DNA of 64,000 bases, from NCBI GenBank assembly GCA_963701305.1, contig OY969586.1, positions 2,825,509 to 2,889,508 on the forward strand, in the 5' to 3' direction. The DNA is from Candidatus Aminicenantes bacterium (GTDB lineage Bacteria; Acidobacteriota; Aminicenantia; Aminicenantales; CAVYOD01). A program made the translations under genes and the position numbers. Numbering within the stretch: position 1 is the stretch's first letter; each line of letters opens with the position of its first letter. Shown in pieces: positions 3,135 through 41,907 of the stretch. Under the pieces are notes generated by a model that saw only the letters and a program-made list of their open reading frames with translations, did no database searches and was not told where the DNA came from.

Positions 3135-5105
3135 ATGAAAACAACAAAGGAAAAAACCCTGACCGCGCTGTGTTTATCGGTTTTTTTTGCTTTGGGGGGA
3201 CTGGCTCCCGCCGACATATCAGCCCAGGGGGCGACCTGGTCCTCTGTGGGGCCCGACGGCGGGAATGTCGCCGGTCTCGTGTCCATCAGTTCGTCCAGTT
3301 TTCTTGAGCTCTACGCCGTGGTCAAGAGTTTCCCGGCCCAGGTTTTCAAATCGACCAGCGGCGGCTCAACCTGGACGAGGATCGCCACCATCCAGGATAC
3401 AATCTACGACCTGAAAAACGCCCCCTCGAGTCCGAACACGTTCTATGCCCTGGCCAAAGGGGCCGTCTACAAGTCGCTCAACAAGGGTCTGACCTGGACC
3501 CGTCACAACCTGCCCAGCAACTGTTTTGGGGACAAGGGGCAGCTGGCTATCCAGCCGACGACTCCGAACTTTCTCTATGTCGCGAGCTACCGCCTGTACG
3601 ATGTCGCCAACAACAAAACCTGCATCGCCGTCCTCAAGTCCACCAATGGCGGCCAGACCTGGTCCTTTAGGACGCTGGCCCAGACCGGGAGCAATTCGGG
3701 CTTTGCGTCTTGCCTGGCGCTCAGCAAGCTCAATGCCAATCTCGTCTTCACCGGCGGCGTTTTCAATGACGCCTCGGGCGACCATTTCCGCATCTATAAA
3801 AGCACGGACGGGGGTATCAACTATTTGAACAAAACCGGAACGATCAATACGCTTCCGCTGTCGATCGTAACCCATCCCGCAGATATGAACAGAGCCTTGG
3901 TCGGCACGGCCGTGGGAATCTATCGGACCACGAACGGCGGAGACGCCTGGCTGAAAAACAACGGATCCGCTTTTGCTTTTTCGCTCGCCCTCGACAACGT
4001 CAACTCCCAGGTGGTCTATGGGGGATATGATAAGGAGATTTACAAGAGCACCAACGGCGGAGCCGACTGGACAAAGTACGTCGGGCTCCTGGGGGTCTGC
4101 ACGGATCTTCTGGCGAATTCCAGCACCGTCTATTTTGCCTCGACGGCCGGGGTCTTTAAGAGTTCAACCGGCGGGACTTCTTGGGCCGGTGCGATCGGCG
4201 GCATGAAAGCCGCGGAGATCCCGGGAGTGGCCGTCGCCTTCAGCTCTTCCAACATTGTCTACGCCGGAGTCAAAAACAACGGTATCTTTAGATCGATCGA
4301 CTCGGGAACGAGTTGGACGCGGACACCCCTTTTCCCCGGTGCAGACGCCATCACCAGGATCGCTGTCAATCAGGGCAATCCCAGCCTGCTCTATGCCCTT
4401 GCTTCCGTCCCAGGGCCTAATCTGGTTTATGAGTCTAATGACGGCGGCGACAATTGGATGGTCATCCTGACCGATTTTTGCCAGGATATGGCGGTCAGCA
4501 GGCTCAATTTTGCCAGGCTCTTCTTGGCCGGGCAGAAGCTCGTCGGGAGCAATTTCTTCCTGGCTCTCCACAAATCCACGGACAGAGGCGTCACCTGGTC
4601 CCATATCCAGATTTCGGCGACCGCGGGAACCAGCGGCAACGCCGTGGCCGTGCAACCATCGAATGACAACGTTATCCTTGTCGGAGGCCAGCTCGCGACC
4701 GGCGGAATTCTATACAAGTCGACGAACGGCGGCAGTTCCTGGGTTCGTATCACCGGGACGATCAAGGGCATCGTGCGAGCCATCACTTTCGACCCCAATT
4801 CCGTCAGCCGGATTTATGTCGGGGCCGACGACGGGTTCTACAAGAGTGAGAACGGAGGATCTTCCTGGACTCGCAAGCTGAACAGAGGGATCCGGTGCAT
4901 CCAGGTCAACCCGTTGACGCCGAATGTCGTTTTTGCCGGAGGTCCGGAGGGTGTTTTCAAGAGCTCCGATTCCGGAAACACCTGGAAAGATTTTAACCAG
5001 ACGATCCCGGCCAGAACGGTTTATGGGATGGACATCGATGGCGCGCACAGAATCCTCTACGCCGCCACGATTGGAGGAAGCGTCTGCATCAGAGCCCTCT
5101 TTTAG
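3135..5105 (+). CDS. Secreted BNR/Asp-box repeat protein (Ycf48/sortilin-like beta-propeller, glycosyl-hydrolase-like)
   Basis: There is a signal peptide (MKTTKEKTLTALCLSVFFALGGLAPADISAQG). At least ten S-x-D/N-G-G-x-x-W Asp-box motifs are present (STNGGQTW, STDGG, TTNGGDAW, STNGGADW, SIDSGTSW, SNDGGDNW, STDRGVTW, STNGGSSW, SENGGSSW, SDSGNTW). Confidence 0.8.
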   Translation: MKTTKEKTLTALCLSVFFALGGLAPADISAQGATWSSVGPDGGNVAGLVSISSSSFLELYAVVKSFPAQVFKSTSGGSTWTRIATIQDTIYDLKNAPSSPNTFYALAKGAVYKSLNKGLTWTRHNLPSNCFGDKGQLAIQPTTPNFLYVASYRLYDVANNKTCIAVLKSTNGGQTWSFRTLAQTGSNSGFASCLALSKLNANLVFTGGVFNDASGDHFRIYKSTDGGINYLNKTGTINTLPLSIVTHPADMNRALVGTAVGIYRTTNGGDAWLKNNGSAFAFSLALDNVNSQVVYGGYDKEIYKSTNGGADWTKYVGLLGVCTDLLANSSTVYFASTAGVFKSSTGGTSWAGAIGGMKAAEIPGVAVAFSSSNIVYAGVKNNGIFRSIDSGTSWTRTPLFPGADAITRIAVNQGNPSLLYALASVPGPNLVYESNDGGDNWMVILTDFCQDMAVSRLNFARLFLAGQKLVGSNFFLALHKSTDRGVTWSHIQISATAGTSGNAVAVQPSNDNVILVGGQLATGGILYKSTNGGSSWVRITGTIKGIVRAITFDPNSVSRIYVGADDGFYKSENGGSSWTRKLNRGIRCIQVNPLTPNVVFAGGPEGVFKSSDSGNTWKDFNQTIPARTVYGMDIDGAHRILYAATIGGSVCIRALF

Positions 5106-5217
5106 GGATCGAATAATCCGGACAGTTGGAACGGCCCCGCCCCAAAAATCAGTCGCGACCTAAACTCAAAAAAGAACGCAGAGGCATTTTTGTGTTAAAA
5201 TCGGAGAGGAGATAGAG

Positions 5218-5850
5218 ATGGCAAATCGAGCCAAATTCTGGCTGATCATTTTTGTCCTCCTCTCGGCCTTTGTCCGGCCCGCACTGGCGATCCTGAAAAA
5301 AGGGGAGAAATTCCTTCCATTCTCCCTCAAAGGGATCGACGAAAAAACCTACACCGTCAAGATGGAAGGCGGGAGACTTACGGTCCTCGTCGAGTTTCAA
5401 AAGGAGGGGAGGAGGGAAGTCGAGAAGTCCCTCCCGGGGGCTGTTCTGATCGATTTTTGGGCGACCTGGTGCGTGCCGTGCCGGACGGCCATGCCTTACC
5501 TGGAAAAACTCTATGAGCGCTATCAACCCAAGCCGGGCCAGGAGGCAGGCGGACTTTTGCTCTTCGGGATAGGTCTTGATCAAAAGGGATCGAAGGTCAT
5601 AAGGCCCTTCTATGAGAAGCTCAAGATCACATATCCGATGCTTTCCGACCCGTCGGAGGGGGCCGAGAGCGACGACCTGCTGCGCACGACGAGAGGGATG
5701 TCGACGAAATACGGAGTTCAGGAGATCCCGGTCGTTTATCTCATCGACTCCAAAGGAATCATCGATCATGCCCATATCGGGTTCAAGAAAGAAGAAATGA
5801 GCGACCTCGAAAGAACGGTCCAATCGTTGATCAAGGAAGGCACGAAATGA
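5218..5850 (+). CDS. TlpA/ResA-like periplasmic thiol-disulfide oxidoreductase (thioredoxin fold, WCxPC)
   Basis: An N-terminal signal anchor (MANRAKFWLIIFVLLSAFVRPALA) is followed by the active site FWATWCVPCRTAMPYLEKLYERY. Its stop codon overlaps the next start (ATGA). Confidence 0.8.
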   Translation: MANRAKFWLIIFVLLSAFVRPALAILKKGEKFLPFSLKGIDEKTYTVKMEGGRLTVLVEFQKEGRREVEKSLPGAVLIDFWATWCVPCRTAMPYLEKLYERYQPKPGQEAGGLLLFGIGLDQKGSKVIRPFYEKLKITYPMLSDPSEGAESDDLLRTTRGMSTKYGVQEIPVVYLIDSKGIIDHAHIGFKKEEMSDLERTVQSLIKEGTK

Positions 5851-5981
5851 AACGCAGGTGGTCGCTGTGGCTGATTTTTCTTTTTATCGCCCTGATGATC
5901 GCCGGGCTCGCCATGGGCGAATTCAGGTCCGTGCTGGAAAAAGCGATCACCATCTGTCTGGATTGCATCGGGATCGGCTGA
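5847..5981 (+). CDS. 44-aa membrane peptide with a C-terminal CxxC motif (MKRRWSLWLIFLFIALMIAGLAMGEFRSVLEKAITICLDCIGIG)
   Basis: I found this by reading the sequence; it is below the ORF-track length cutoff. Its ATG overlaps the thioredoxin stop (aaATGA), it has a basic N-terminus plus one TM helix plus CLDC, and it ends 21 nt before the ferredoxin gene. Confidence 0.45.
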   Translation: MKRRWSLWLIFLFIALMIAGLAMGEFRSVLEKAITICLDCIGIG

Positions 5982-6002
5982 TCGGAGGAGCGGGGAGCGC
6001 CG

Positions 6003-6881
6003 ATGAAGTTGCGCGATAAGCGGAGGTGGTTCCAGTGGCTGAGCACTCTGGGAAATAACATCTACCTCCCCGCGTTTCTCAAAGGGCAGATCTTCCAGGG
6101 CGGCAGCAAGGGGGTGTGTGTTCCCGTATTGAATTGCTACTCTTGCCCGTCCGCAGTTACGGCCTGCCCGATCGGCTCGCTTCAGAACGCCTTCGGGTCG
6201 ATCAGGTTCAAGCTAACCGTGGCCGAATATCAATTCGGCCTCTATGTCCTCGGCCTCCTGGGCGCCGTCGGCGGCCTCGTGGGAAGGATCCCCTGCGGTT
6301 GGCTCTGCCCGTTTGGCCTGATTCAAGAACTCATTTATAAGATCCCGGGACCGAAGATCAAAGTGCCTAAATTCCTGAGCTATTTGAAATACGTGGTCCT
6401 GGCGGTGATGGTCATCGCCCTGCCCCTCCTCATCGTGGACGAATTCGGCTACGGCCAGACCTGGTTCTGCAAGTGGATCTGTCCGGCCGGGACGCTCGAG
6501 GCCGGCATTCCCCTCGTCCTCCTGAGCGCCGCGATCCGCAAGCAGGTCGCCTTCATGTACGCCTGGAAAGTGGGGGTTCTGGTCTTTTTTGTCGCCTGGA
6601 TGATCGTCAGCCAGCGTCCTTTCTGCCGCACGACCTGCCCTCTGGGGGCATTTCTCGGGATCTTCAATAAAATGAGCCTTTTCCGGATGGTCGTAGACGA
6701 TGAAAGGTGCACGGAATGCAATAAGTGCGTCCGGGACTGCCCGGTCGGAGTCGAAGTCTATAAAACGCCCAACAGCCCGGACTGCATCCGCTGTCTGAAG
6801 TGCGTGGATTCCTGCAAATACGGGTATATCGGATACGAATTCCTGCCCAAAAAATCGAAAAAGGAAGAATCTTTGGCCTAG
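6003..6881 (+). CDS. NapH/MauN/CcoG-type membrane polyferredoxin (four CxxCP motifs plus two 4Fe-4S ferredoxin motifs)
   Basis: The CxxCP motifs are CYSCPSAVTACP, CGWLCPFG, CKWICPAG and CRTTCPLG, sitting between hydrophobic helices. The C-terminus carries CTECNKCVRDCP and CIRCLKCVDSC. An RBS ggaggagcgggg precedes the start. Confidence 0.8.
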   Translation: MKLRDKRRWFQWLSTLGNNIYLPAFLKGQIFQGGSKGVCVPVLNCYSCPSAVTACPIGSLQNAFGSIRFKLTVAEYQFGLYVLGLLGAVGGLVGRIPCGWLCPFGLIQELIYKIPGPKIKVPKFLSYLKYVVLAVMVIALPLLIVDEFGYGQTWFCKWICPAGTLEAGIPLVLLSAAIRKQVAFMYAWKVGVLVFFVAWMIVSQRPFCRTTCPLGAFLGIFNKMSLFRMVVDDERCTECNKCVRDCPVGVEVYKTPNSPDCIRCLKCVDSCKYGYIGYEFLPKKSKKEESLA

Positions 6882-7440: not shown

Positions 7441-10400
7441 TTATTTTGTCAGGATATTGGAGATCTGTTTCTCCTTGAGCAGATTATTAAAGGCCGAAAT
7501 ATCTTTGGCTACGAGCTCGCTCAGTTTGTTTTCTGCGCCCGCCAACTCTCTCTTCAGTTCTTCATGAACGGCGACCATTTGATCTGTTGGTGGGAAATCG
7601 GCCGAGCCCCCGGCGATGTCCCCGGCCAGGACGGAAAGTTGGCCATAAAGGTTAAGGGGAACCCGGAAAGACTTCTCATCCCCTTCGGCAAGAACATGAT
7701 GAAAATACAAGTCCTCGACAGCCAAAAGTTTGGCATCGAGCTCATCGGCGCCTTTGATGATCTCAGGAGATCCCTTACTCTCTGTCAATAACTCCTTGAG
7801 GTCGGCGATCTGCTTCCTCATCCATTCAATCCGGTTGATCGAATCCACGACGGTGTTCAGATTATCCCTGACTTCGAGCGCCCTTTTAACCTGAGCTTGG
7901 ATATCCGCTTCGCTCCCGGTTGAATTCGGGTCTTTCTTTACGACGACCTTCTGACTCAGTTCCTCGCCTCCCGCTGATAATTTCACAGTGTAAGTTCCTG
8001 GGACGGCCAGAGGTCCTGCGGAGCCTCCCTCGATTCCCCAGGCAACGAGCGGAATCCAGCCCTCGCGGACCGAATCCTTGAACCTCCTCTCTTCCCAAAC
8101 GTGAGGATTTCCGGCCGGCTTAGTCCTGAGCTTAGCCCGGTGCGGGCCTTCGTATCTTAAGTCCCACCAGATCCGGTTGATCCCAGCCTTGGCTGGTCCG
8201 GTCAGGGTCCGGAGCGCCTTTCCGTCTGCATCAGTGACGGTGACCTTGGCCCCATCTTTCGACTCCGATTTGAGATAATAATTGAGCGAGGCTCCATAGG
8301 GAGGATTCGTCCCGGCGCACAGGTCGTTCGGCGCACTCTGAATCCCCGTCACATTTCTAAAGCGGTAGGCCGGCCGCGGCTCGAAGAAGTGGGCCGGAGC
8401 GCTCAAGGCATCGGAGTTAAGTTGCTGTAGCGGCGAAATATCGTCCATAATCCAGAAGCCGCGGCCATAGGTGGCAACGACGAGATCGCCAAAATTCTTC
8501 TGGACGACCATCCAATGGACGGGCGCGTGGGGCATGTTTGTCTGGAGGGGAACCCAGTTTCCGCCGTCGTTCCAGGAAATGTAGAGCCCATTTTCTGTTC
8601 CCGCATAGAGCAATCCTTTTTGCTTCGGGTCCTCGCGGACACAGTGGACATAGCTAAAGACGCTCTTGGGAATTGCCGAGCTGATCAGCTTCCAGGTTTG
8701 CCCATAGTCTTCGGTCTTATAAATGAAGGGATCCCGATTGTTCACTTGATGCAGGTCAAAGGTGACGTAGCAGATTCCGGCATCATACCTCGAAGGCTCG
8801 ATGTTGCTCACCGTTCCCCATTTGGGCAAGCCGAGGATGTTGTTCGTCGTATTGGACCAGTGGGCCCCGCCATCCTTCGTCAGGTGCAGTTGCCCGTCGT
8901 TTGTGCCGGCCCAGATCAGACCGGGGGTGACAGGGGACTCGGCGATCGCAAAAACTAGGCATCCGTATTCGACGCCGAGGTTGTCATAGGTCAGGCCTCC
9001 CGAATCCCCCAGCTTGGCCGGGTCGTTGGTTGACAGGTCGGGGCTTATGACCTCCCAGCTCTGCCCGCCGTTAGTGGTCATGTGGACATATTGGCTCCCG
9101 ACGTAGACCCGGTTGTGGTCGTGAGGGGATATGGCGATCGGGAAGGTCCAGTTGAATCGATACTTCAGAAGGTTGGCCGGCGTTCCCATCGTCGACTTCG
9201 GCCAAACACGCACCGACCGGTTCTGGCGCGTTCTCAGGTCCCAGCGGTCGAGGCCCGCATCATAGCATCCTCCCCAGACGATGTTGGGGTCGACCGGATC
9301 GGGAATGGCGAACCCGCACTCGCACCCGGAAACATACGTCCACAAGCCCGACGGAATCCCGCCTCCCCACCAGCCCATGCCCATGAGGCTGTTGCTCGGG
9401 CCGCGGTAGGATTCGCCATCCTGCCTGTTCCCGTATACAAAATAGGGAATCTGGTTATCGACCTCGACATGGTACATCTGGGCCACAGGCAGCACGACCT
9501 CGGCCCACTCCCGGCCGTGGGTGACTGAAATCCAGAGCCCGATGTCGTTAGCTATGGTTATGCGGTCGGCATTCTTCGGATCGATCCACATGTCGTGGTT
9601 GTCGCCGCCCCAGGGAACGAGCGTGTTCGTCTCGCCACCGTCCAGGGTTAGGCTCATCGAATTCGATGGGAAATAGACCTCGTTTTCGTCGACAGGTGAG
9701 ATGACCAGGCGCGTGTAATAATGGGGACGCTCGTTGAGAAGCCGGCTGGAATTGACCAGCTTCCATTCCTCGCCGCCGTCATCAGACCTCCAGAGCGAAC
9801 CGCGCTGGCCGGTCTCAATCAGCGCGTAGACGCGCCTGGAATTGCTTTGGGCGACGGCCACTGCGATCTTGCCGAGCGGGGAATCCGGCAGGCCGTGTCC
9901 GGTAAGACGTTTCCAGGAGATTCCGCCGTCGCGGGAGACGAAGACTCCGCTTCCCGGCCCTCCGCTCCACCTTCCCCAGGTCTTGATGTCCAACTGCCAC
10001 ATCCCGGCGAAAAGGATTCTCGGATTATTGGGATCGATGGCAATATCTGAGCAGCCTGTGTTCTCATCGACGAAGAGGACCTGCTGCCAGGTCTTTCCTC
10101 CATCGGCGGTCCGGTAGATGCCGCGCTCGTTCTGGGGACCGTAGCCGTGTCCCATCGCGGCCACGAAAACTATGTCCGAGTTAAGAGGGTCGACGAGAAT
10201 TCGTCCCACCCGGCCGCTTTTCTCCAGTCCCATGTGCTTCCACGTTTTTCCGGCGTCTTCGGATTTGTAAACTCCGTTTCCGATTGAGACGTTACTTCGG
10301 ATGAAGGTTTCGCCTGTGCCGGCCCAGATGACGTTCGGATCCGAGGGGGCGATGGCCAGAGAGCCGATGGATTGGGCAGGCTGGTCGTCAAAGACAGGCT

Positions 10401-10683
10401 TCCAGTTGATTCCCCCATCGGTGGATTTCCAGACTCCGCCCGAAGCGGCCCCGGCGTAGTAGACACGAAGATCTCCCGGAACGCCGACGATAGCAATCAT
10501 CCGGTTCCCTTGGGGGCCGATGTGGCGAAACCTGAGTTGGCCAAAATAGGCCGGGTCGATCTCGGGTCCGCCGGACAGGGCGGGGGCCTTTTGTTTTTGT
10601 GGCTGAAAACCACTGAAAAGAAAAACGGCAGCCAAAGCCATAAGCCCAAGTGCGGCTTTCCAGCCGTCCTTATTTATGGACAT
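7441..10683 (-). CDS. Large secreted BNR/sortilin(VPS10)-like beta-propeller protein with a C-terminal helical domain
   Basis: The ORF is 7441..10737. The likely true start is M19 (MSINKDGWKAALGLMALAAVFLFSG signal peptide) with RBS gggaggagg upstream. Many Asp-boxes are present (KSTDGGINW, KSEDAGKTW, RTADGGKTW, VSRDGGISW, RSDDGGEEW, TTNGGQSW, LTKDGGAHW, KTEDYGQTW, SWNDGGNW). The C-terminal roughly 230 aa are predicted coiled and helical. Confidence 0.8.
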   Translation of the reverse strand: MSINKDGWKAALGLMALAAVFLFSGFQPQKQKAPALSGGPEIDPAYFGQLRFRHIGPQGNRMIAIVGVPGDLRVYYAGAASGGVWKSTDGGINWKPVFDDQPAQSIGSLAIAPSDPNVIWAGTGETFIRSNVSIGNGVYKSEDAGKTWKHMGLEKSGRVGRILVDPLNSDIVFVAAMGHGYGPQNERGIYRTADGGKTWQQVLFVDENTGCSDIAIDPNNPRILFAGMWQLDIKTWGRWSGGPGSGVFVSRDGGISWKRLTGHGLPDSPLGKIAVAVAQSNSRRVYALIETGQRGSLWRSDDGGEEWKLVNSSRLLNERPHYYTRLVISPVDENEVYFPSNSMSLTLDGGETNTLVPWGGDNHDMWIDPKNADRITIANDIGLWISVTHGREWAEVVLPVAQMYHVEVDNQIPYFVYGNRQDGESYRGPSNSLMGMGWWGGGIPSGLWTYVSGCECGFAIPDPVDPNIVWGGCYDAGLDRWDLRTRQNRSVRVWPKSTMGTPANLLKYRFNWTFPIAISPHDHNRVYVGSQYVHMTTNGGQSWEVISPDLSTNDPAKLGDSGGLTYDNLGVEYGCLVFAIAESPVTPGLIWAGTNDGQLHLTKDGGAHWSNTTNNILGLPKWGTVSNIEPSRYDAGICYVTFDLHQVNNRDPFIYKTEDYGQTWKLISSAIPKSVFSYVHCVREDPKQKGLLYAGTENGLYISWNDGGNWVPLQTNMPHAPVHWMVVQKNFGDLVVATYGRGFWIMDDISPLQQLNSDALSAPAHFFEPRPAYRFRNVTGIQSAPNDLCAGTNPPYGASLNYYLKSESKDGAKVTVTDADGKALRTLTGPAKAGINRIWWDLRYEGPHRAKLRTKPAGNPHVWEERRFKDSVREGWIPLVAWGIEGGSAGPLAVPGTYTVKLSAGGEELSQKVVVKKDPNSTGSEADIQAQVKRALEVRDNLNTVVDSINRIEWMRKQIADLKELLTESKGSPEIIKGADELDAKLLAVEDLYFHHVLAEGDEKSFRVPLNLYGQLSVLAGDIAGGSADFPPTDQMVAVHEELKRELAGAENKLSELVAKDISAFNNLLKEKQISNILTK

Positions 10684-11016
10684 TCTCGCGCCTCCTCCCG
10701 ATTTTATAACCGCCTGGATTTGACAATCTTCTCTCATTCAATCTTGTGATGTCAAATCCAGAGGAACGGGGGACGGACCGACGATTTGCTCGGGCTGATC
10801 TCCGCCTCATGATCGCTACAGCCCTTCTCAAAGCCCATCCTCCACCATCACATGATTGGAAACGCTTCACTCGTAAATTCACTTGTTTGGTGCTCTTGAA
10901 TGATACGTGGTAAAATAAAATAGGGTTGTCAGAGGACGAGATGGGTTGACCCCAAAGCTGATTCAGGGACAAAGCTTACGTCCAATTTTGGATCGGCATA
11001 GAAGGGAGAAAGCAAT

Positions 11017-12453
11017 ATGATTACGACAAAAAATATCGTCAAGGGATCAGCGGCCATCTTATTGGACAAAGTCCTGGCGAATGACGGACTGAGGCATCTG
11101 GCAGTGCAATTTGCGGAGAAAGAATCCTACAAGAGTTCTATGGAAGATGCCTATCCACCTCCTATCAAGCGGGCGGAATTCATCGGGAAGAGGAACCTCA
11201 TCTATTCCATTGACAAGGCCCTGGGAAAAGGAATGATCTCCCCCAACGTCAGAAAAAGGATATTGAAGAACCTGGTCGGGCGGGTGATGATGCCCGACTC
11301 CAATGCCAAAGCGACTTTTTTTGAGAAATACGGCATTCAACCGCCTGGTTTTGTCACCATCAGTCCCACCTCTCAGTGCAACCTTTTCTGCGAAGGCTGC
11401 TATGCCAACAGTTCGACCCGGGAAAAAGCTCATCTCGACTTCGATGTCTTCTCGCGAATCCTGGAAGAAAAGGAAAAATTTTGGGGAAGTTATTTTACGG
11501 TGATCTCGGGTGGAGAGCCCCTGATGTGGCGGAGTTCCGGGAAGAGCCTTTTTGACTTGCTCCGAAAATTCCAGAATCAGTACTTCATGATGTACACCAA
11601 TGGGACTCTCATCGGAAAAAATACAGCCGAAGAAATCGCCGAAATCGGAAACCTGACCCCGGCCATTTCTGTCGAAGGCTTTGAAGAGGAAACGGACGCA
11701 AGGAGAGGGAAGGGTACTTTTCATAAGATCATGGATGCCTTTGAGAATCTGCGCCGGGTCGGCGTGCCCTTCGGAGTCTCGTTGACCCTGACCCGCCACA
11801 ACGTGGAAACCGCGCTGAGCGATAAATTCGTAGATTTTATGTTTGAGCAGCAGGGGGCGATCTACGGCTGGTTTTTCCATTATATGCCCATCGGCAGGCA
11901 GTATACGCTCGATCTCCTGATCACGCCCGAACAGAGGCTGGAGGCCTATAAGCGGCAACTGCATTTTATAGAAGACAAAAAGCTTTTCTTCGTCGATTTC
12001 TGGAACGGCGGGCCGATGACCCAAGGATGCTTGTCCGCGGGAAGAAGGGGTGGGTACTTCTATATTAATTGGAACGGGGATGTGACGCCTTGTGTATTCT
12101 TCCCCTACTCAACCCATAATATCTATAAGGTCTTTGAGGGCGGTGGCGATATCAACACGGTTTTATCATCCGGACTGTTTCAGGACATCCGGCAGTGGCA
12201 GAAGGACTACGGATATTCAGAAGACCCTTCGAAGGTCGACGAAAAAATCGGGAACTGGCTGAGACCCTGTCCGATTCGGGACCATTACCGGGTCGCCTAC
12301 GACCTCATTCAAAAACATAAGGCGGAGCCGATCGACCCACCCGCGGAAGAGGCCCTCGAGGACGAAACCTACAGGAGCCTGCTCGAAGAGTACGGGCGCA
12401 AGGTCGGAGAGTTGACTCAAGAGGAGTGGGAAAGAAAGTACATCAAAGGCTGA
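11017..12453 (+). CDS. Radical SAM enzyme with an N-terminal extension of about 120 aa and a partial SPASM/twitch-like C-terminal Cys region
   Basis: CNLFCEGC (Cx3Cx2C) lies at about residue 121. VISGGEPLMW is the SAM-binding GGEP motif. Downstream cysteines are GCLSAGRRGGYFYINWNGDVTPCVFFP and RPCPIRDH, giving six Cys in total. Confidence 0.8.
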   Translation: MITTKNIVKGSAAILLDKVLANDGLRHLAVQFAEKESYKSSMEDAYPPPIKRAEFIGKRNLIYSIDKALGKGMISPNVRKRILKNLVGRVMMPDSNAKATFFEKYGIQPPGFVTISPTSQCNLFCEGCYANSSTREKAHLDFDVFSRILEEKEKFWGSYFTVISGGEPLMWRSSGKSLFDLLRKFQNQYFMMYTNGTLIGKNTAEEIAEIGNLTPAISVEGFEEETDARRGKGTFHKIMDAFENLRRVGVPFGVSLTLTRHNVETALSDKFVDFMFEQQGAIYGWFFHYMPIGRQYTLDLLITPEQRLEAYKRQLHFIEDKKLFFVDFWNGGPMTQGCLSAGRRGGYFYINWNGDVTPCVFFPYSTHNIYKVFEGGGDINTVLSSGLFQDIRQWQKDYGYSEDPSKVDEKIGNWLRPCPIRDHYRVAYDLIQKHKAEPIDPPAEEALEDETYRSLLEEYGRKVGELTQEEWERKYIKG

Positions 12454-37127: not shown

Positions 37128-37261
37128 CCCGTGTGCCAACAGTGTGCCAAAACCGATTGAAAAGCGCAGAAAATTACGGTTTCGGGTTGAAAGACAAAAA
37201 TAGGGTTATGCCGGGTCGAGCATGATGTAACTCTCTGATAATTAAGGAAGATAAGGGGGAG
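37128..37261. repeat. Second copy of the selC downstream flank repeat (partner of 35180..35326)
   Basis: See the feature at 35180..35326. Confidence 0.6.
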
Positions 37262-37354
37262 CGGGAAGGTATGGGAGTCGAACCCATCCGGGACTTTTGA
37301 AGGCCCCATACTGGATTTGAAGTCCAGAAGGCCCACCGGGACCTTGACCCTCCC
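37262..37354 (-). tRNA. selC: tRNA-Sec (anticodon UCA), 93 nt without an encoded CCA
   Basis: I folded it by hand from the reverse complement. The acceptor stem is 8 bp (GGGAGGGT/ACCTTCCC with one G-U). The D stem is 6 bp with a 4-nt loop (AGGTCC-CGGT-GGGCCT). The anticodon arm is CTGGA-CU-UCA-AA-TCCAG. The long variable arm is GGGGC-CTTCAAAA-GTCCC. The T arm is 5 bp (ATGGG-TTCGACT-CCCAT). The discriminator is G. The 8/5 acceptor/T geometry, the 6-bp D stem with 4-nt loop and G73 are the bacterial tRNA-Sec signature. It lies immediately downstream of selB. Confidence 0.8.
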
Positions 37355-37358
37355 GCGG

Positions 37359-39275
37359 CTATCTTAGCACATGCCGGTCTTCGATTCTCTTGGTCAGGCC
37401 GATTCTGTCGAAATATTCCAGGATGGCCTGGCCATATTTGCGCGAAATCCTGAGGCTGTCCCTCAGTTCAGCAATGGTGATGCTTTTGTGCTTTTGCAGG
37501 TGATTGAGGACGAGCGTGCGCGCCGACTCGAGCGCATCCCGGTGATAGGTTACCTTGGCCGAAAGCCGGACGAGATTTCCCCGCTGGATGAGGCTCCCGA
37601 CGATGCTTTTAAACAGGGCCGGCTTCAGGTCGAGCTGTTTCTCAACTTCTTCCTCGAGCGGGCTTTCATACCGGGTGCTCCTGTAAATTTGCTCTATCCT
37701 GTCGGCCGCCTCCTGATCTTTGGGCCTGAACTTGGCTTCGTGGCCGACAAGCCCGACTCCCGCCTCCTTCTTCAAAAGCAGATTTTTCCGGAATAAGTCC
37801 TCGAGGACGACTTTGAAAACCAGGGAATCGCTCGTCTTCAGAAGATGTGAGCGCAGGTCGGCTGCGGGCATGAAAAGACGATGCGGATAAGTCTCGAAGT
37901 ATTCGCGGGCCGCGGAAAGCAGGTTTTCGCCCAGCTTTGCATAAACATTGTGGTGGATGTACATTCCGTCTGGATCGGCCGCCAATGGAACGAGTTTTCC
38001 CTGCCCAACCAGCTTATCAATCGCCTCCTTAACATCGCTCACGTTCTTTCCGGCGCGTATGGCCACGTCTTGTGCGCTCTGGGGGCGGAATCCAGCTTTG
38101 AAAAATATCTGCTCGACAAACTCTCCCAGGCTCCCCTCGAGCTTCTTAAGTGCTTCTATGGCTAGAGGATCCTCTCTCTTGTGTTTTTCGGGCGCGCCTT
38201 CAAGAATTATCCCGCCTCCGATCGTCGTGAGCGGCGAAAACGAGCGGATAACGAAGCGGTCGCCCGGCAAAGCGACAGTCGGAGCCTCGCAGATGAATTG
38301 GGCCAATGAGGACTCTCCCGGCTGCACGGATCTTTTTTCGAGCAGCACCAGCCGGGCGATGACTTCGTCGGTCCCGATATGGAGGCGGATCCTCTCCCGG
38401 TTTCTCAGCTCCCGGCCGTAGCTCTTGAGGAGGTTCAGGCGGGCATCCAACCGGATCGTGGCCAATAGAGATTTGGGAGCCGCGGCGACCTGGCCCCGAC
38501 GGAGAAGCTCTTTATTTATATCCTGGAGGTTGATCGCGGTGCGCTTCCCAAGACCGGAATATTCTTCCTTTTCATTGTGGACCTGGATGCCTCGGACTCG
38601 GACTTCGAGACTCTCCGGATAGATTTCGAGGGCGTCTCCCACCCTGACCTCCCCGGAGAGAATGGTCCCGGCGATGACGGTGCCGAATCCACGGATAGAG
38701 AAAATCCGGTCGATAGGCATCCGAAAGACGCCGCTATCCGCCCGTTTTTTGATTCGCCGGCCGAGAGCGATGAGCTCAGCCTTGATTTCATTGATTCCCT
38801 GGCGGCTCACCGAGGATACCGGGACAATCGGCGCGCCCTCGAGAAATGTTCCCCTGACGAGATCTTTAATCTTAAAGGTCAGCTCGAGTATCTGATCCTG
38901 GTTCACCAAGTCCGCCTTTGTCAGCGCGACGATTCCGAGATTGACTCCCAGGAGCTGCAGGATATCGAAATGCTCGCGGGTCTGGACGCAGATCCCTTCG
39001 TCTGCCGCGATGACCAGCATGACGGCGTCTATGGAGCTGGCGCCGGCGGCCATCGTCTTGATGAATTTTTCGTGGCCGGGGACATCGATGAAAACAATCT
39101 GTTTCTCGTAGTCCGGGGCCTCTAAGAAGACAAACCCCAGCTCGATCGTCAGGCCGCGCTCTTTTTCCTCGGGGAGGGTGTCAGGATCGATCCCGGTCAA
39201 GGCCTTGACGAGCGAGGACTTGCCGTGGTCAATGTGTCCCGCCGTCCCGACGATGACGTGTTCTTTTCCTGACAT
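37359..39275 (-). CDS. selB: Selenocysteine-specific elongation factor SelB
   Basis: The GTPase motifs are [19 protein letters not shown] and TKADL. Domains II and III are followed by a long C-terminal winged-helix extension (638 aa). It sits between selD and selC. Confidence 0.9.
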
Positions 39276-39294
39276 GGCTTTTCGGCCGGCGGGT

Positions 39295-40485
39295 TTATTT
39301 TTTGAGCCTGATTTTGCCTTTGGATTTTGCCGTGATTCTGCCCACGACGGCCGCCCGCCCGACGCCGCGTCTCAGCAACTCTCTTAGCAGGGCTTTCGAC
39401 TTTTTCTCTTCGATGGCCATGAGAAGCCCGCCCGAGGTCTGTGGGTCATAAAGGATCGTTTCCATGTCGTCGCTGACGTCTTTCGCCCTCTGGATGAACT
39501 GGGCCGAATACTCACGGTTACGTTCTATCGCGCCCGAAATAAGTCCTTCCCTCACCAATTCGAGTACTCCCGCAAAGAGGGGGATATTGCCCGCCTGGAC
39601 CTCTGCCGTAACGCCGCTCTGGCAGACGATCTCACTCAGGTGTCCGGCGAGCCCGAAGCCTGTTACGTCCGTAGCCGTGCGGACGCCCATTTTGACCATG
39701 ACCTCTGCGGCGGCCTTGTTGAGCTCGGTCATGGATCGTTCGGCTTCGCGCAATCCCTCCTCCGGCGCCCTGCACAGTTGCCGGGCAAAGCTCAATATCC
39801 CGGTCCCGATAGGCTTGGTCAAGACGAGGAGGTCTCCGGGTTTGGCCGTATCATTGGTGATAATCCGGGCTGGATTGATGGTCCCCGTGACGGCAAAACC
39901 AAACTTGATCTCTTTGTCCTTGATGCTGTGGCCACCGAGCAAGGCTACCCCCGCTTCTTTCAGCTTATCGATCCCGCCTTGGAGCATCTTGTTCATGATG
40001 CGGTGGCTCAGCTTTTCGATCGGAAAGGCGATGATGGAGAGGGCGGTGAGCGGTTTCCCGCCCATCGCGTAGATGTCGCTCACGGAATTGGCGGCGGCGA
40101 TCTGGCCGAATATATAGGGGTCGTCGACGACCGGGGTGAAGACGTCGACCGACTGGACGAGGGCCATCCGGCTCGAGATCTTGAAGACTCCGGCATCGTC
40201 GCAGGTGCTGGCGCTCACCAGGACCCGGGGATCAAAAATCTCGGGGAGACCGGCCAGGGCTTTTTTCAGGTCTTCCTGGCTGATCTTGGAAGCGCAGCCG
40301 GCGTTCTCGACCAGCCCGGTCAGATGGACTTCTTCGACGGCCTCTTCTTCCCGTTCCCCGGAGCAGAGGCAGATATTTTTCTGTTTGAAGAGGTCGCATG
40401 GGCAGGGCTCTTTGGGGTTGCAGATGCAGTGACCGAGCTTGATCGAGCGGCCCATGATGCGCTTGCGCTTCTGGTAATCGATCAT
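39295..40485 (-). CDS. selD: Selenophosphate synthetase SelD (Cys-type) with an N-terminal Cys-rich extension of about 45 aa
   Basis: The PurM-like core has the active-site [10 protein letters not shown] (aligns to E. coli GAGCGCKIS), DDAGV and AMGGKP. The N-terminal extension is [23 protein letters not shown]. Confidence 0.85.
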
Positions 40486-40500
40486 CGTCCGATTCCCTCT

Positions 40501-41907
40501 CTACGGGCCGAGGATCTCCAGAATCGCCTTCTCAACCAAGACGTCTTCCTCGGGCTGGATTGTCCGCAAATCGAAGAGGACATAATCTTTATAAACCCTG
40601 GCAAAAACAGGCGGCTCGTGAAAGCGGAGGCCTCTGGCCAGCGCATCCACTGAGATGTCCAACGGCCTTACGGCCAGCACTTTAGTGGGGATCGTTTCTA
40701 TGGGGACGGATCCGCTTCCTACCTGGGATCCGCTGTCCTCAATCGAAAATATCGCTTTTTCCGGAAGGACCTTGAGGAGCCTGACAGCAAGTTTCTTGGC
40801 CCGCCGCTCCAGTTCTTTAGGACTCGAGGAAAGCATCCGGTAGAGCGGATGGGTTTCGTTGATTTTCTCGAGGTTTAAGAACAACTTAAGCGTGGCCTCC
40901 ATGGCCGCAATCGTTAGCTTCCCGACCCGAAAGGCCCGCATCAAGGGGTTTTTTTTGATCTGCGAAACGACAGCGGCCCGGCCGACGATTATTCCCGACT
41001 GAGGGCCGCCGATGAGCTTATCACCCGAGAAACAGGCAACGTCGACGCCGGCCGCAAGGCTTGTGTGGACCAGCGGTTCGGCCTCGAGACCGTAGCCTTT
41101 GAGGTCAATCAGGGCGCCGCTGCCCAGGTCGTCGATGACCGGCACCTGGTGTTTTTTTGCGAGCTCAACCAGCTCTCCGATCCCAGGTTCTTCGGCAAAG
41201 CCCACGATCCTGTAGTTACTGTGATGGACACGCATAATGGCGCCGGTGCGCTCGCTGATGGCAGATTCGTAATCGCGGAGGTGAGTTTTGTTGGTCGCTC
41301 CCACTTCCCGGAGAATCGCCCCCGATGTGGCCATGACTTCGGGCATCCGGAAAGACCCGCCGATTTCGACGAGCTGTCCTCGGGAGAGAATGACTTCCTT
41401 TCCTTTGGCCAGGGTGTTAAGGATCAGGACCGTCGCCGCGGCGTTGTTGTTGACGACGACGGCTGCCTCGGCTCCGGTCAGTTCGCAGAGAAGCCCGGCG
41501 ACATGGCTGTAACGGTCGCCGCGCCGCCCTGTTTCGCGGTCGATGGCCAGATTGCAGTACCCGTCACTGATCAGTGCGAGCGCCTGCGCCGCCTCCCTGG
41601 AGAGAACCGCCCGTCCCAATCCCGAATGCATCAGAATGCCTGTCGCGTTGATCACTTTTCGCAGCGATGGCGCCATTCTCGCTTCGAGGTCAAGCCGGAG
41701 CTTCGCGGTCACGCTCTCAAGAGCCAGGTCATCTTCTACGACGGAGGGGGATGCATCTTTCAAAATCTTTGCCCTCAGCTCGTCAATCGCGGCGCGCGCC
41801 CGGCGGAGCACCGCCTCACGTCCATAGGTCTCTATGAGGGCAGCGGCGTCCGGATGGGCGAGGAGGGCGTCCACGGAAGGTAGTTTTCGTAAAAGCTCCT
41901 TGTTCAA
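40501..41907 (-). CDS. selA: L-seryl-tRNA(Sec) selenium transferase SelA
   Basis: 468 aa. The PLP-fold core has NATGILMHSGLGRA...NNNAAAT...GDKLIGGPQ. It is the first gene of the selA-selD-selB-selC array. Confidence 0.9.
   Translation of the reverse strand: MNKELLRKLPSVDALLAHPDAAALIETYGREAVLRRARAAIDELRAKILKDASPSVVEDDLALESVTAKLRLDLEARMAPSLRKVINATGILMHSGLGRAVLSREAAQALALISDGYCNLAIDRETGRRGDRYSHVAGLLCELTGAEAAVVVNNNAAATVLILNTLAKGKEVILSRGQLVEIGGSFRMPEVMATSGAILREVGATNKTHLRDYESAISERTGAIMRVHHSNYRIVGFAEEPGIGELVELAKKHQVPVIDDLGSGALIDLKGYGLEAEPLVHTSLAAGVDVACFSGDKLIGGPQSGIIVGRAAVVSQIKKNPLMRAFRVGKLTIAAMEATLKLFLNLEKINETHPLYRMLSSSPKELERRAKKLAVRLLKVLPEKAIFSIEDSGSQVGSGSVPIETIPTKVLAVRPLDISVDALARGLRFHEPPVFARVYKDYVLFDLRTIQPEEDVLVEKAILEILGP

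Follow-up and report, generated by a model that had tools for sequence, protein, structure and literature searches.

Three open reading frames lie on the + strand at positions 5218–5850, 5847–5981 and 6003–6881 of the window, i.e., the whole stretch of 64,000 nucleotides from Candidatus Aminicenantes that was analysed. They encode a thioredoxin-fold protein, a small peptide and a membrane polyferredoxin, in this order. The ATG of the peptide gene (5847–5849) and the TGA of the thioredoxin gene (5848–5850) form an ATGA overlap, and a gap of 21 nt (5982–6002) separates the peptide gene from the polyferredoxin gene. The coordinates agree with the three-gene module proposed in an earlier, sequence-only reading of this DNA. 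Scanning for promoters and terminators gave no more sites than were found in shuffled sequence. The features are as follows.

5203–5211, + strand: Shine-Dalgarno-like sequence GGAGAGGAG, 5′ of the thioredoxin start codon
5218–5850, + strand: TlpA/ResA-like thioredoxin-fold protein of 210 aa, predicted to be exported (Pfam, NCBIfam and PDB matches)
5467–5481, + strand: thioredoxin active-site motif W84-C85-V-P-C88, from the translation
5833–5840, + strand: Shine-Dalgarno-like sequence AAGGAAGG, 5′ of the peptide start codon
5847–5981, + strand: CD1871A-family peptide of 44 aa, adjoining the polyferredoxin (NF040920 match)
5955–5966, + strand: peptide motif C37-L-D-C40, with invariant cysteines
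5984–5990, + strand: Shine-Dalgarno-like sequence GGAGGAG, 5′ of the polyferredoxin start codon
6003–6881, + strand: NapH-like membrane polyferredoxin of 292 aa, with about four transmembrane segments and a C-terminal 2×[4Fe-4S] ferredoxin domain
6117–6170, + strand: subfamily-specific cluster C39-x5-C45-x2-C48-P-x5-C55-P in the TM1-TM2 loop (81/81 sequences; absent from E. coli NapH)
6294–6311, + strand: first canonical Cx3CP, C98-C102-P103, common to NapH
6468–6485, + strand: extra Cx3CP, C156-C160-P161, in the TM3-TM4 loop (81/81 sequences; absent from E. coli NapH)
6624–6641, + strand: second canonical Cx3CP, C208-C212-P213, common to NapH
6708–6815, + strand: [4Fe-4S] motifs C236xxC239xxC242xxxC246P and C261xxC264xxC267xxxC271 (Pfam Fer4 families; cysteines invariant)

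The first protein was matched above threshold by the Pfam families AhpC-TSA (47.4 bits, threshold 26) and Redoxin (41.7 bits, threshold 26.6) and also by Thioredoxin (36.4 bits), and its nearest PDB sequences are DsbE- and ResA-like. With WCVPC at residues 84–88, it is evidently the TlpA/ResA-type thioredoxin it had been taken for. By its CxxC and Pfam matches it has the TlpA/ResA/DsbE-type fold, but it meets no named equivalog (ResA, DsbE/CcmG, TlpA or StoA). The top-ranked NCBIfam models all remained below cutoff: ResA, the best match, with 59.2 bits against 170, DsbE with 41.1 against 123, StoA with 39.1 against 210 and TlpA with 35.8 against 230. The CxPC motif is kept in the Aminicenantes orthologues. 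The N-terminus carries a hydrophobic segment with its hydropathy peak at residues 14–20, followed by A-L-A (residues 22–24). Residues 1–24 look like a cleavable Sec-type signal rather than a signal anchor; export is inferred from these sequence features alone.

The peptide has a K/R-rich N-terminus, one transmembrane helix, a kink at G24-E25, a second helix and the C-terminal sequence CLDCIGIG; it had been described as ending in CLDC, which is not the true end. The claimed single-transmembrane CxxC peptide of 44 residues is otherwise borne out by a hydropathy peak at residues 11–20, by an AF2 model with helices at 3–23 and 26–41 (pLDDT 73.5), and by the NCBIfam model NF040920, "CD1871A family CXXC motif-containing protein", of which it is a member (47.3 bits, cutoff 32, E 1.3e-12). 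The match spans residues 9–44 of the peptide and positions 3–38 of the 38 in the model, and the peptide fits the description of this family as small single-transmembrane proteins with a CxxC near the C-terminus. It therefore cannot be called unannotated, being a member of a curated family (3134 clusters at 50% identity) and called by gene callers in related assemblies. No paper was found that mentions the CD1871A family; the literature matches to CD1871 refer to a different gene or to the conjugative transposon CTn5. Among 36 diverse copies, and likewise among 59 members from the database, C37, C40 and G42 never vary, and every copy terminates in C-L-x-C-[IV]-G-[IL]-G-stop.

Two other interpretations of the peptide were tried and rejected. 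A RiPP precursor is not expected to fit a membrane-anchored peptide whose invariant motif is C-terminal and which is tied to the polyferredoxin in five phyla; a radical SAM gene at 11017–12453 recurs in the near-identical relative L001 and does not count as a conserved neighbour elsewhere in the set of loci. Natural fusions of peptide and polyferredoxin were considered as a clue to topology, but the long database entries are frameshift or assembly artefacts. The extended peptide entry P0299 contains an indel and then reads into the polyferredoxin N-terminus.

The polyferredoxin was matched in three stretches by the Pfam family Fer4_5 (PF12801; 69.8 bits, threshold 22) and also by Fer4_7, while no FMN_bind match was obtained with Pfam anywhere in its 292 residues. 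Aligned with E. coli NapH, it shares with that protein C98/C102/P103, C208/C212/P213 and the full set of eight ferredoxin cysteines, and it has the two Cx3CP motifs, two [4Fe-4S] motifs and four transmembrane segments of the NapH-type scaffold. Nevertheless, it falls short of the cutoffs of the NapH/MauN models (TIGR02163, 59.3 vs. 213; PRK09477, 52.8 vs. 234), of the CcoG/RdxA/FixG model (TIGR02745, 21.6 vs. 316.7 bits) and of the NosR model (NF046105, 44 vs. 1000 bits), the last being aligned with its C-terminal part only. The proposal of a NapH/MauN/CcoG-type protein thus holds for the Fer4_5 superfamily and the NapH scaffold and fails for the NapH and CcoG families proper. The two CxxCxxCxxxC ferredoxin motifs foreseen are present at residues 236–246 and 261–271. 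Instead of four CxxCP motifs, there are one CxxCP (C45-C48-P49, flanked by C39 and C55-P56) and three Cx3CP motifs (at C98, C156 and C208). All 18 cysteines are invariant in 81 sequences down to 43% identity, and six of them (C39, C45, C48, C55, C156 and C160) are absent from E. coli NapH. A PDB sequence search matched the ferredoxin domain only (residues 225–290) and found no solved Fer4_5 membrane module.

Comparison across genomes revealed that the peptide and the polyferredoxin travel together. In a set of 80 loci from Acidobacteriota/Aminicenantes, Thermodesulfobacteriota, Firmicutes, Actinobacteria and Spirochaetes, the peptide adjoins the polyferredoxin in 78, covering five phyla. The order of the two genes is swapped in L036, the peptide copy is degenerate in L028, and one of the 80 loci lies on a cut contig where the peptide could not be assessed. 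The codon of the invariant R7 of the polyferredoxin lies 11–111 nt (median 34) past the peptide stop codon. When look-ups started from the peptide instead, a Fer4_5 protein adjoined it in 5/5. The small ORF therefore passes the check on its conservation, and a physical complex between the members of what appears to be an obligate pair is inferred from sequence. As to its role, the peptide had been thought to be a relay or a substrate; a substrate of the thioredoxin is not supported, and it acts as an obligate partner of the polyferredoxin instead.

The module reading would have suffered if the polyferredoxin gene belonged to a nap, nos or cco operon in relatives, and no such membership was found. 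Neither the window nor loci L001–L091 gave a nap operon when probed with NapA, NapB and NapC, while the NapG and NapF probes matched solely the polyferredoxin's own ferredoxin domain. Pfam scans of the genes neighbouring the polyferredoxin gave no nos or cco families.

A TlpA-like redoxin adjoins 41 of the 80 loci, lying on the module's own strand upstream in 25 and downstream in 13, and on the opposite strand in 3. The Firmicutes redoxins carry lipoboxes, and in Oscillospiraceae the lipoprotein redoxin is followed by a lipoprotein MsrA-MsrB; this MsrAB linkage is confined to the Oscillospiraceae loci L082–L084 and occurs in 0/80 genome loci. An additional DsbD_N-like protein with a Cx5C motif is present in L006 and L007, and an exported rhodanese replaces the redoxin in L024 and L048. 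Such nDsbD-like, exported rhodanese and lipoprotein MsrAB neighbours are typical clients of DsbD/CcdA. Many Firmicutes loci are also adjoined by a two-component system, an arrangement resembling the ModRS-Trx-CcdA-MsrAB locus of Fusobacterium (PMC9239216).

No CcdA/DsbD was found in the window or in L001–L091 with a DsbD probe from E. coli. A metagenome scan with the thioredoxin yielded one orthologue (L095) and 79 generic TlpA-like genes, the latter in such number because the search pattern IDFWATWC is itself generic; the generic loci then served as controls. With the same probe, CcdA/DsbD genes were nearby in 0/50 thioredoxin-containing module loci and in 10/79 generic TlpA loci (Fisher p = 0.0067), and none of these control loci has the peptide or the polyferredoxin. 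This absence concerns the neighbourhoods only; 64 kb of the source genome are visible and a ccdA elsewhere is not excluded. As none of the 79 generic TlpA loci carries the peptide-polyferredoxin pair, the association of redoxin and module is specific. The idea of a dedicated, monophyletic thioredoxin partner was discarded, since the partners from other phyla score 17–50 bits and the generic TlpA-like genes 44–77 bits.

These neighbourhoods could also mean that the pair is a general NapH-like quinol dehydrogenase or conduit serving some other, unidentified periplasmic acceptor, with thioredoxin adjacency secondary or lineage-specific. Such an explanation would accommodate the 39/80 loci without an adjoining redoxin, and the reuse of NapH-like modules with many partners is on record (PMC8238504). 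It would also suit the Thermodesulfobacteriota, where the pair is coupled in translation to a gene for a cytoplasmic Thiamine_BP-family protein, with an SH3b protein next in line and a Ham1 gene also among the neighbours, an arrangement left unexplained by our proposal. Nevertheless, redoxin adjacency recurs in five phyla and three arrangements, the generic TlpA loci lack the pair, and the six extra cysteines and the peptide CxxC point to thiol chemistry. Moreover, no recurring cytochrome, FMN-binding, NapG-like or molybdoenzyme partner was seen among the neighbour genes. We consider the general conduit unlikely, though it is the strongest of the competing explanations.

The side of the membrane on which the extra cysteines lie is essential to any mechanism. 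The AF2 model of the polyferredoxin (pLDDT 54), for which the alignment held 75 sequences with homologues of at least 62% identity only, was unusable for topology or fold search, and the topology therefore rests on the analogy to NapH and on charge counts. The six extra cysteines sit in the two loops of lowest K+R density (3/48 and 3/39 residues), while the predicted cytoplasmic segments have 5/8 and 4/27. Hence the six are predicted to be in periplasmic loops. TM1 is only weakly hydrophobic, and an alternative topology would leave most of the extra cysteines in the cytoplasm. The K/R-rich N-terminus of the peptide suggests that its CxxC faces the same outer side as these cysteines.

Taken together, we lean, if only slightly, towards the interpretation that the peptide and the polyferredoxin form an obligate two-subunit membrane redox core, of which the TlpA-like thioredoxin is an extracytoplasmic client; direction, donor, topology and complex are all inferred. 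Electrons would enter at the cytoplasmic 2×[4Fe-4S] domain, the likely donor being reduced ferredoxin or a ferredoxin-linked reductase. They would cross the membrane module bearing the two canonical Cx3CP motifs and reach, on the side predicted to face outwards, C39, C45, C48, C55, C156 and C160 along with C37/C40 of the peptide. The WCVPC disulfide of the exported thioredoxin would be reduced next, and the reduced thioredoxin would then reduce envelope substrates. In other lineages the same core may serve lipoprotein redoxins beside lipoprotein MsrAB, nDsbD-like proteins or exported rhodanese. The core would thereby functionally replace the DsbD/CcdA transmembrane thiol relay. Whether the extra cysteines are thiol-disulfide relays, as in DsbD, or ligate additional Fe-S clusters, as in ferredoxin:thioredoxin reductase and Hdr, is unresolved. 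No pathway is known that would build Fe-S clusters on the external side of a membrane protein inserted through Sec, which counts against the proposal. The donor could instead be quinol, NapH itself being regarded as a quinol dehydrogenase. No member of the module has been studied experimentally, and about half of the loci are without an adjoining thioredoxin. The delivery of electrons to a periplasmic thiol reductase without CcdA/DsbD, as first suggested from the sequence, is thus supported by redoxin adjacency, by client-type neighbours and by the absence of CcdA nearby, and by no experiment.

The direction of flow is not given by sequence alone. In reverse, the core would re-oxidise an extracytoplasmic thioredoxin-like oxidase, as an analogue of DsbB/VKOR, and pass the electrons to quinone or to a cytoplasmic acceptor. 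The core does resemble a quinone protein, NapH being reported to be a menaquinol dehydrogenase (PMC3475470; PMC5928378), and no DsbB or VKOR gene was seen near any locus. On the other hand, the partners are of the reductive-pathway type: the top NCBIfam matches are ResA, DsbE, TlpA and StoA, and the MsrAB and nDsbD-like neighbours consume reductant. WCVPC is also the motif of the reductant TlpA. Furthermore, the organisms carrying the module are strictly anaerobic, and their ferredoxin pools are of low potential. Reverse flow appears a little less probable even than the general conduit.

Metal handling in the manner of CcoG with TlpA and Sco, with the polyferredoxin as reductase of Cu(II) or another metal and the peptide CxxC as metal ligand, is very improbable: CcoG belongs to the same Fer4_5 superfamily (TIGR02745 match), CxxC is a common Cu(I)-binding motif and TlpA in Bradyrhizobium reduces Cu-chaperone thiols, but the CcoG score is far under its cutoff, no cco, cop or sco genes are among the neighbours, the peptide lacks an MxCxxC metallochaperone context and the hosts include many gut Clostridia, which are not known to have haem-copper oxidases.

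The module as a reductant exporter is best compared with the DsbD/CcdA relay and its TlpA, ResA, CcmG and Etrx clients, as in Fusobacterium (PMC9239216) and in the MsrAB system of S. gordonii (PMC7034828), with which it shares clientele and locus logic: exported or lipoprotein TlpA-like redoxins, an nDsbD-like protein, MsrAB, an adjoining two-component system and a presumed supply of envelope reductant. Unlike in these systems, neither Pfam nor the E. coli DsbD probe links its membrane protein to the DsbD transmembrane domain (PF02683), and the module consists of an Fe-S polyferredoxin plus a separate CxxC subunit of 44 aa. The presumed donor is a ferredoxin-type carrier and not cytoplasmic thioredoxin. 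To NapH of the NapGH quinol dehydrogenase (E. coli, Wolinella), the polyferredoxin is similar in having about four transmembrane segments, Cx3CP after TM2 and TM4, 2×[4Fe-4S] and Fer4_5; it differs by six extra invariant cysteines, an obligate CxxC mini-subunit and the lack of napG, napA, napB or napC nearby.

NapH-like proteins have already been viewed as modular transmembrane electron conduits (PMC8238504). In the flavinylated systems NosR and RdhC/PceC the same membrane module feeds an extracytosolic mediator (PMC8238504; PMC5928378), and the function of the Cx3CP motif is equally unknown there (PMC5928378). The mediator of our module is thioredoxin-like and not an FMN-binding domain, and no ApbE or FMN_bind genes were found in the module loci. 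The combination of NapH-like and thioredoxin-like proteins is not among the systems listed in the survey (PMC8238504).

A preprint of November 2025 reported an operon of a 4Fe-4S protein, a TlpA-family reductase and a CxxC protein in gut Clostridia (bioRxiv 10.1101/2025.11.06.686285). Its authors described a novel operon for redox homeostasis, present in Blautia, Anaerostipes and Phascolarctobacterium, and gave no mechanism, topology or comparative analysis. Our Lachnospiraceae loci, e.g., L081 from Blautia, fit it by description, no direct sequence comparison having been made, and the window holds a distant Aminicenantes version with the order thioredoxin, peptide, polyferredoxin. The sequence-only reading knew of no described system of this kind. 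That remains true of the mechanism and no longer of the parts, as the peptide family is curated in NCBIfam and the operon appears in the preprint. With the Fe-S-dependent disulfide reductases, namely ferredoxin:thioredoxin reductase, HdrB and DsrK, the module may share its chemistry but no detected sequence similarity; these enzymes work in the cytoplasm and, unlike the proposed module, carry no electrons through a membrane. In ferredoxin:thioredoxin reductase and in the CCG domains of HdrB and DsrK, a [4Fe-4S] cluster beside a cysteine pair reduces a disulfide with ferredoxin-level electrons.

To our knowledge, all characterised routes of reductant to envelope thiols use membrane proteins of the DsbD/CcdA family fed by cytoplasmic thioredoxin. 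These routes serve cytochrome c maturation, repair by MsrAB, disulfide isomerisation and the assembly of copper sites. With less than even confidence, we suggest that the peptide and the polyferredoxin subfamily represent a new class of transmembrane reductant exporter apart from DsbD/CcdA: a NapH-like Fe-S scaffold, probably ferredoxin-driven, with an outer-face relay of 44 aa to thioredoxin-like, nDsbD-like or rhodanese clients, widespread in anaerobes including abundant human gut Clostridia. If true, this Fe-S alternative would couple the repair of envelope proteins in anaerobes directly to their ferredoxin pool and would provide a first concrete function for the Cx3CP motifs, which remain enigmatic in the NapH/NosR/RdhC superfamily. 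The polyferredoxin subfamily occurs in at least 589 species-level genomes, and the module is widespread in anaerobes, dominant gut Clostridia among them. Abundance of the operon has been linked to immunotherapy toxicity (10.1101/2025.11.06.686285). Given its presence in dominant gut Clostridia and this link, a testable mechanism would also be of practical value.

Three plus-strand ORFs are found in the window exactly where the sequence-only reading had placed them, each confirmed by ORF translation:

5218-5850, + strand, thioredoxin-like protein, 210 aa
5847-5981, + strand, CxxC peptide, 44 aa
6003-6881, + strand, polyferredoxin, 292 aa

An ATGA overlap joins the thioredoxin and peptide genes, 21 nt separate the peptide from the polyferredoxin, and a Shine-Dalgarno-like sequence precedes all three start codons. 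Close homologues place the organism in Aminicenantes (Acidobacteriota). The thioredoxin carries WCVPC and matches the Pfam families AhpC-TSA, Redoxin and Thioredoxin, while the polyferredoxin matches Fer4_5 in three stretches (69.8 bits) together with 4Fe-4S dicluster families. The two ferredoxin motifs claimed for the latter were found, but the four CxxCP motifs were not: there is a single CxxCP (C45-C48-P49, with C39 and C55-P56 on either side) and three Cx3CP motifs beginning at C98, C156 and C208.

The peptide had been regarded as unannotated. It does have a family: the NCBIfam model NF040920, "CD1871A family CXXC motif-containing protein", with a cutoff of 32, gives it 47.3 bits. Pfam has no match for it. 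The CLDC assigned to its C-terminus is present but not terminal, as the protein ends in CLDCIGIG. All copies are built alike. A single hydrophobic helix follows the K/R-rich N-terminus, and after a G-E kink come a second helix and the terminal motif C-L-x-C-[IV]-G-[IL]-G. The AF2 model of the peptide places helices at 3-23 and 26-41 (pLDDT 73.5). At 90% identity the family falls into 1856 clusters. The 50% set has 3134 representatives, of which 150 were listed, and nearly all of these carry the motif at their very C-terminal end. Judged by locus-tag numbering only, the namesake CD1871A falls within CTn5 of C. difficile 630, a conjugative transposon spanning CD1845-CD1878a (PMC3158075), and the module may thus move as mobile-element cargo. 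A further copy of the module resides on the 809 kb megaplasmid of Peptoclostridium acidaminophilum (L094), where RefSeq names nothing more specific than "TlpA disulfide reductase family protein", "CD1871A family CXXC motif-containing protein" and "4Fe-4S binding protein".

Subfamily-specific patterns, applied to one genome per species, confirmed at least 589 polyferredoxin relatives, and the best 80 loci, from Aminicenantes/Acidobacteriota, Thermodesulfobacteriota, Firmicutes, Actinobacteria and Spirochaetes, were compared. Loss of the small ORF from related loci would have spoken against the module; a peptide homologue adjoins the polyferredoxin in 78 of these 80. In L036 the usual order is reversed, with the peptide after the polyferredoxin; in L028 the peptide is degenerate, ending in SLSCIGIG; and L023, truncated by the contig end, cannot be judged. 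The peptide stop codon and the codon of the invariant R7 of the polyferredoxin are 11-111 nt apart (median 34), so tight coupling of the pair is conserved. Searching in reverse from the peptide, a Fer4_5 protein was adjacent in 5/5 look-ups.

The third gene is less constant. A TlpA-like redoxin adjoins the pair in 41/80 best loci, lying upstream on the same strand in 25 (Aminicenantes, Syntrophales and other Thermodesulfobacteriota, one Spirochaetaceae MAG), downstream on the same strand in 13 (Lachnospiraceae, Oscillospiraceae, Ellagibacter) and on the opposite strand in three. The upstream arrangement also occurs in two separately retrieved Treponema contigs (L089, L090). The thioredoxin partners, compared by sequence, do not form a dedicated clade, which suggests that TlpA-like proteins at large were the source of a modular recruitment. 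In Firmicutes the redoxins are lipoproteins, followed in Oscillospiraceae by a lipoprotein MsrA-MsrB; many Firmicutes loci also contain a two-component system, and in this they resemble the ModRS-Trx-CcdA-MsrAB locus of Fusobacterium (PMC9239216). Two of the compared loci encode an exported tandem-rhodanese protein upstream of the peptide, in the place of the thioredoxin:

L024 4904-5836 and L048 4891-5832, exported tandem-rhodanese protein

Its best NCBIfam match, 3-mercaptopyruvate sulfurtransferase, stays under cutoff (138 bits), and the arrangement is reminiscent of rhodanese/DsbD fusion proteins such as TsoB. In two Aminicenantes MAGs an nDsbD-like protein directly follows the polyferredoxin and extends the thioredoxin-peptide-polyferredoxin trio to four genes:

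L006 6902-7477 and L007 1761-2336, DsbD_N-like exported protein, 191 aa, PF11412, Cx5C

Redoxins, nDsbD-like, rhodanese and MsrAB-type proteins are classical clients of DsbD/CcdA. An E. coli DsbD probe found no match in the 64-kb window or the compared loci (L001-L091), a local result that does not cover the rest of the genome. The same probe detected CcdA/DsbD transmembrane domains in 10/79 generic TlpA-like metagenome loci, none of which (0/79) contains the peptide or the polyferredoxin. For module loci with thioredoxin against these controls (0/50 vs 10/79), Fisher p = 0.0067.

All 18 polyferredoxin cysteines are invariant across 81 sequences. In the alignment, E. coli NapH keeps two Cx3CP motifs (C98/C102, C208/C212) and both Fe-S motifs but is without C39, C45, C48, C55, C156 and C160. 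All six of these cysteines, extra relative to NapH, sit in the TM1-TM2 and TM3-TM4 loops, where positive-charge density is lowest. NapH has four transmembrane segments with both termini cytoplasmic; if this topology holds, the extra-cysteine loops are inferred to face the periplasm, and the peptide CxxC would be on the same side. The weak hydrophobicity of TM1 is a caveat. The AF2 model of the polyferredoxin (pLDDT 54) is too poor for use, a PDB sequence search gave no solved structure spanning the membrane module, and in no phylum does the protein pass the cutoff of an NCBIfam model. That it might belong to a nap operon can be dismissed, none being found beside it in the window or the compared loci. 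Even for NapH, NosR and RdhC it is not known what the Cx3CP motifs do (PMC5928378).

The best-supported interpretation is that peptide and polyferredoxin would form an obligate membrane redox core passing electrons to extracytoplasmic thiol oxidoreductases in substitution for DsbD/CcdA, though the direction of flow is not established. Between the two roles proposed for the mini-protein, a subunit or relay of the polyferredoxin is most likely and a thioredoxin substrate is disfavoured, since the peptide tracks the polyferredoxin with or without the thioredoxin. The electron donor could be ferredoxin or quinol, the former being, by our own reasoning, thermodynamically more comfortable for thioredoxin reduction. 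The extra cysteines could serve as disulfide relays or ligate additional Fe-S clusters.

Against the redox core, 39/80 best loci have no adjacent redoxin. In 17/80, all Thermodesulfobacteriota, a cytoplasmic Thiamine_BP/MTH1187-family gene (PF01910, ~100 aa) replaces the thioredoxin, its coding region overlapping the start of the peptide gene, and the polyferredoxin is followed by SH3b or Ham1. The same gene is present in L087 (4705-5135) and L091 (4680-5147). This linkage is not accounted for by the redox core. In two Thermodesulfobacteriota MAG loci the pair is immediately preceded by an FdhE-like gene and a split molybdopterin oxidoreductase (~195-aa and ~820-aa ORFs; L026 951-4049, L027 953-4027). 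The oxidoreductase is probably a formate dehydrogenase containing selenocysteine.

The surroundings in the window are as follows:

1097-2959, - strand, 620-aa protein, N-terminal response-regulator receiver domain and C-terminal TonB_C
3135-5105, + strand, secreted Sortilin/BNR-repeat protein, 656 aa
6940-7224, - strand, 94-aa ORF without Pfam match, downstream of the module
7441-10737, - strand, secreted Sortilin/BNR-repeat protein, 1098 aa
37261-37354, - strand, tRNA-Sec
37359-39275, - strand, SelB
39295-40485, - strand, SelD-like AIRS protein
40501-41907, - strand, SelA

The selenocysteine machinery (37261-41907) is complete, indicating that the organism makes selenoproteins. The receiver/TonB_C protein is an unusual fusion with a long low-complexity linker; in the near-identical relative L001 the region is annotated as two genes. 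The Sortilin/BNR proteins on either side of the module are kept in L001 and absent from more distant loci, and are probably unrelated neighbours. L001 (97% identical) has a PIN-domain gene (10899-11474) in place of the 94-aa ORF; this site appears variable and may contain a toxin-antitoxin-like insertion.

No functional study of the module was found in the literature. A survey of NapH-like conduits describes flavinylated partners only; for thioredoxin-like mediators, the membrane partner that it gives is DsbD (PMC8238504). A November 2025 preprint reports in gut Clostridia a "novel operon" of a 4Fe-4S protein, a TlpA-family reductase and a CxxC protein, the abundance of which predicted immune-related adverse events, without proposing a mechanism (10.1101/2025.11.06.686285). 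The arrangement, not known to the sequence-only reading as a described system, has therefore already been noticed and its peptide family curated, while the system itself remains uncharacterised. We classify the module with the NapH-like electron conduits; the chance is substantial that it defines a new class of envelope reductant exporters.
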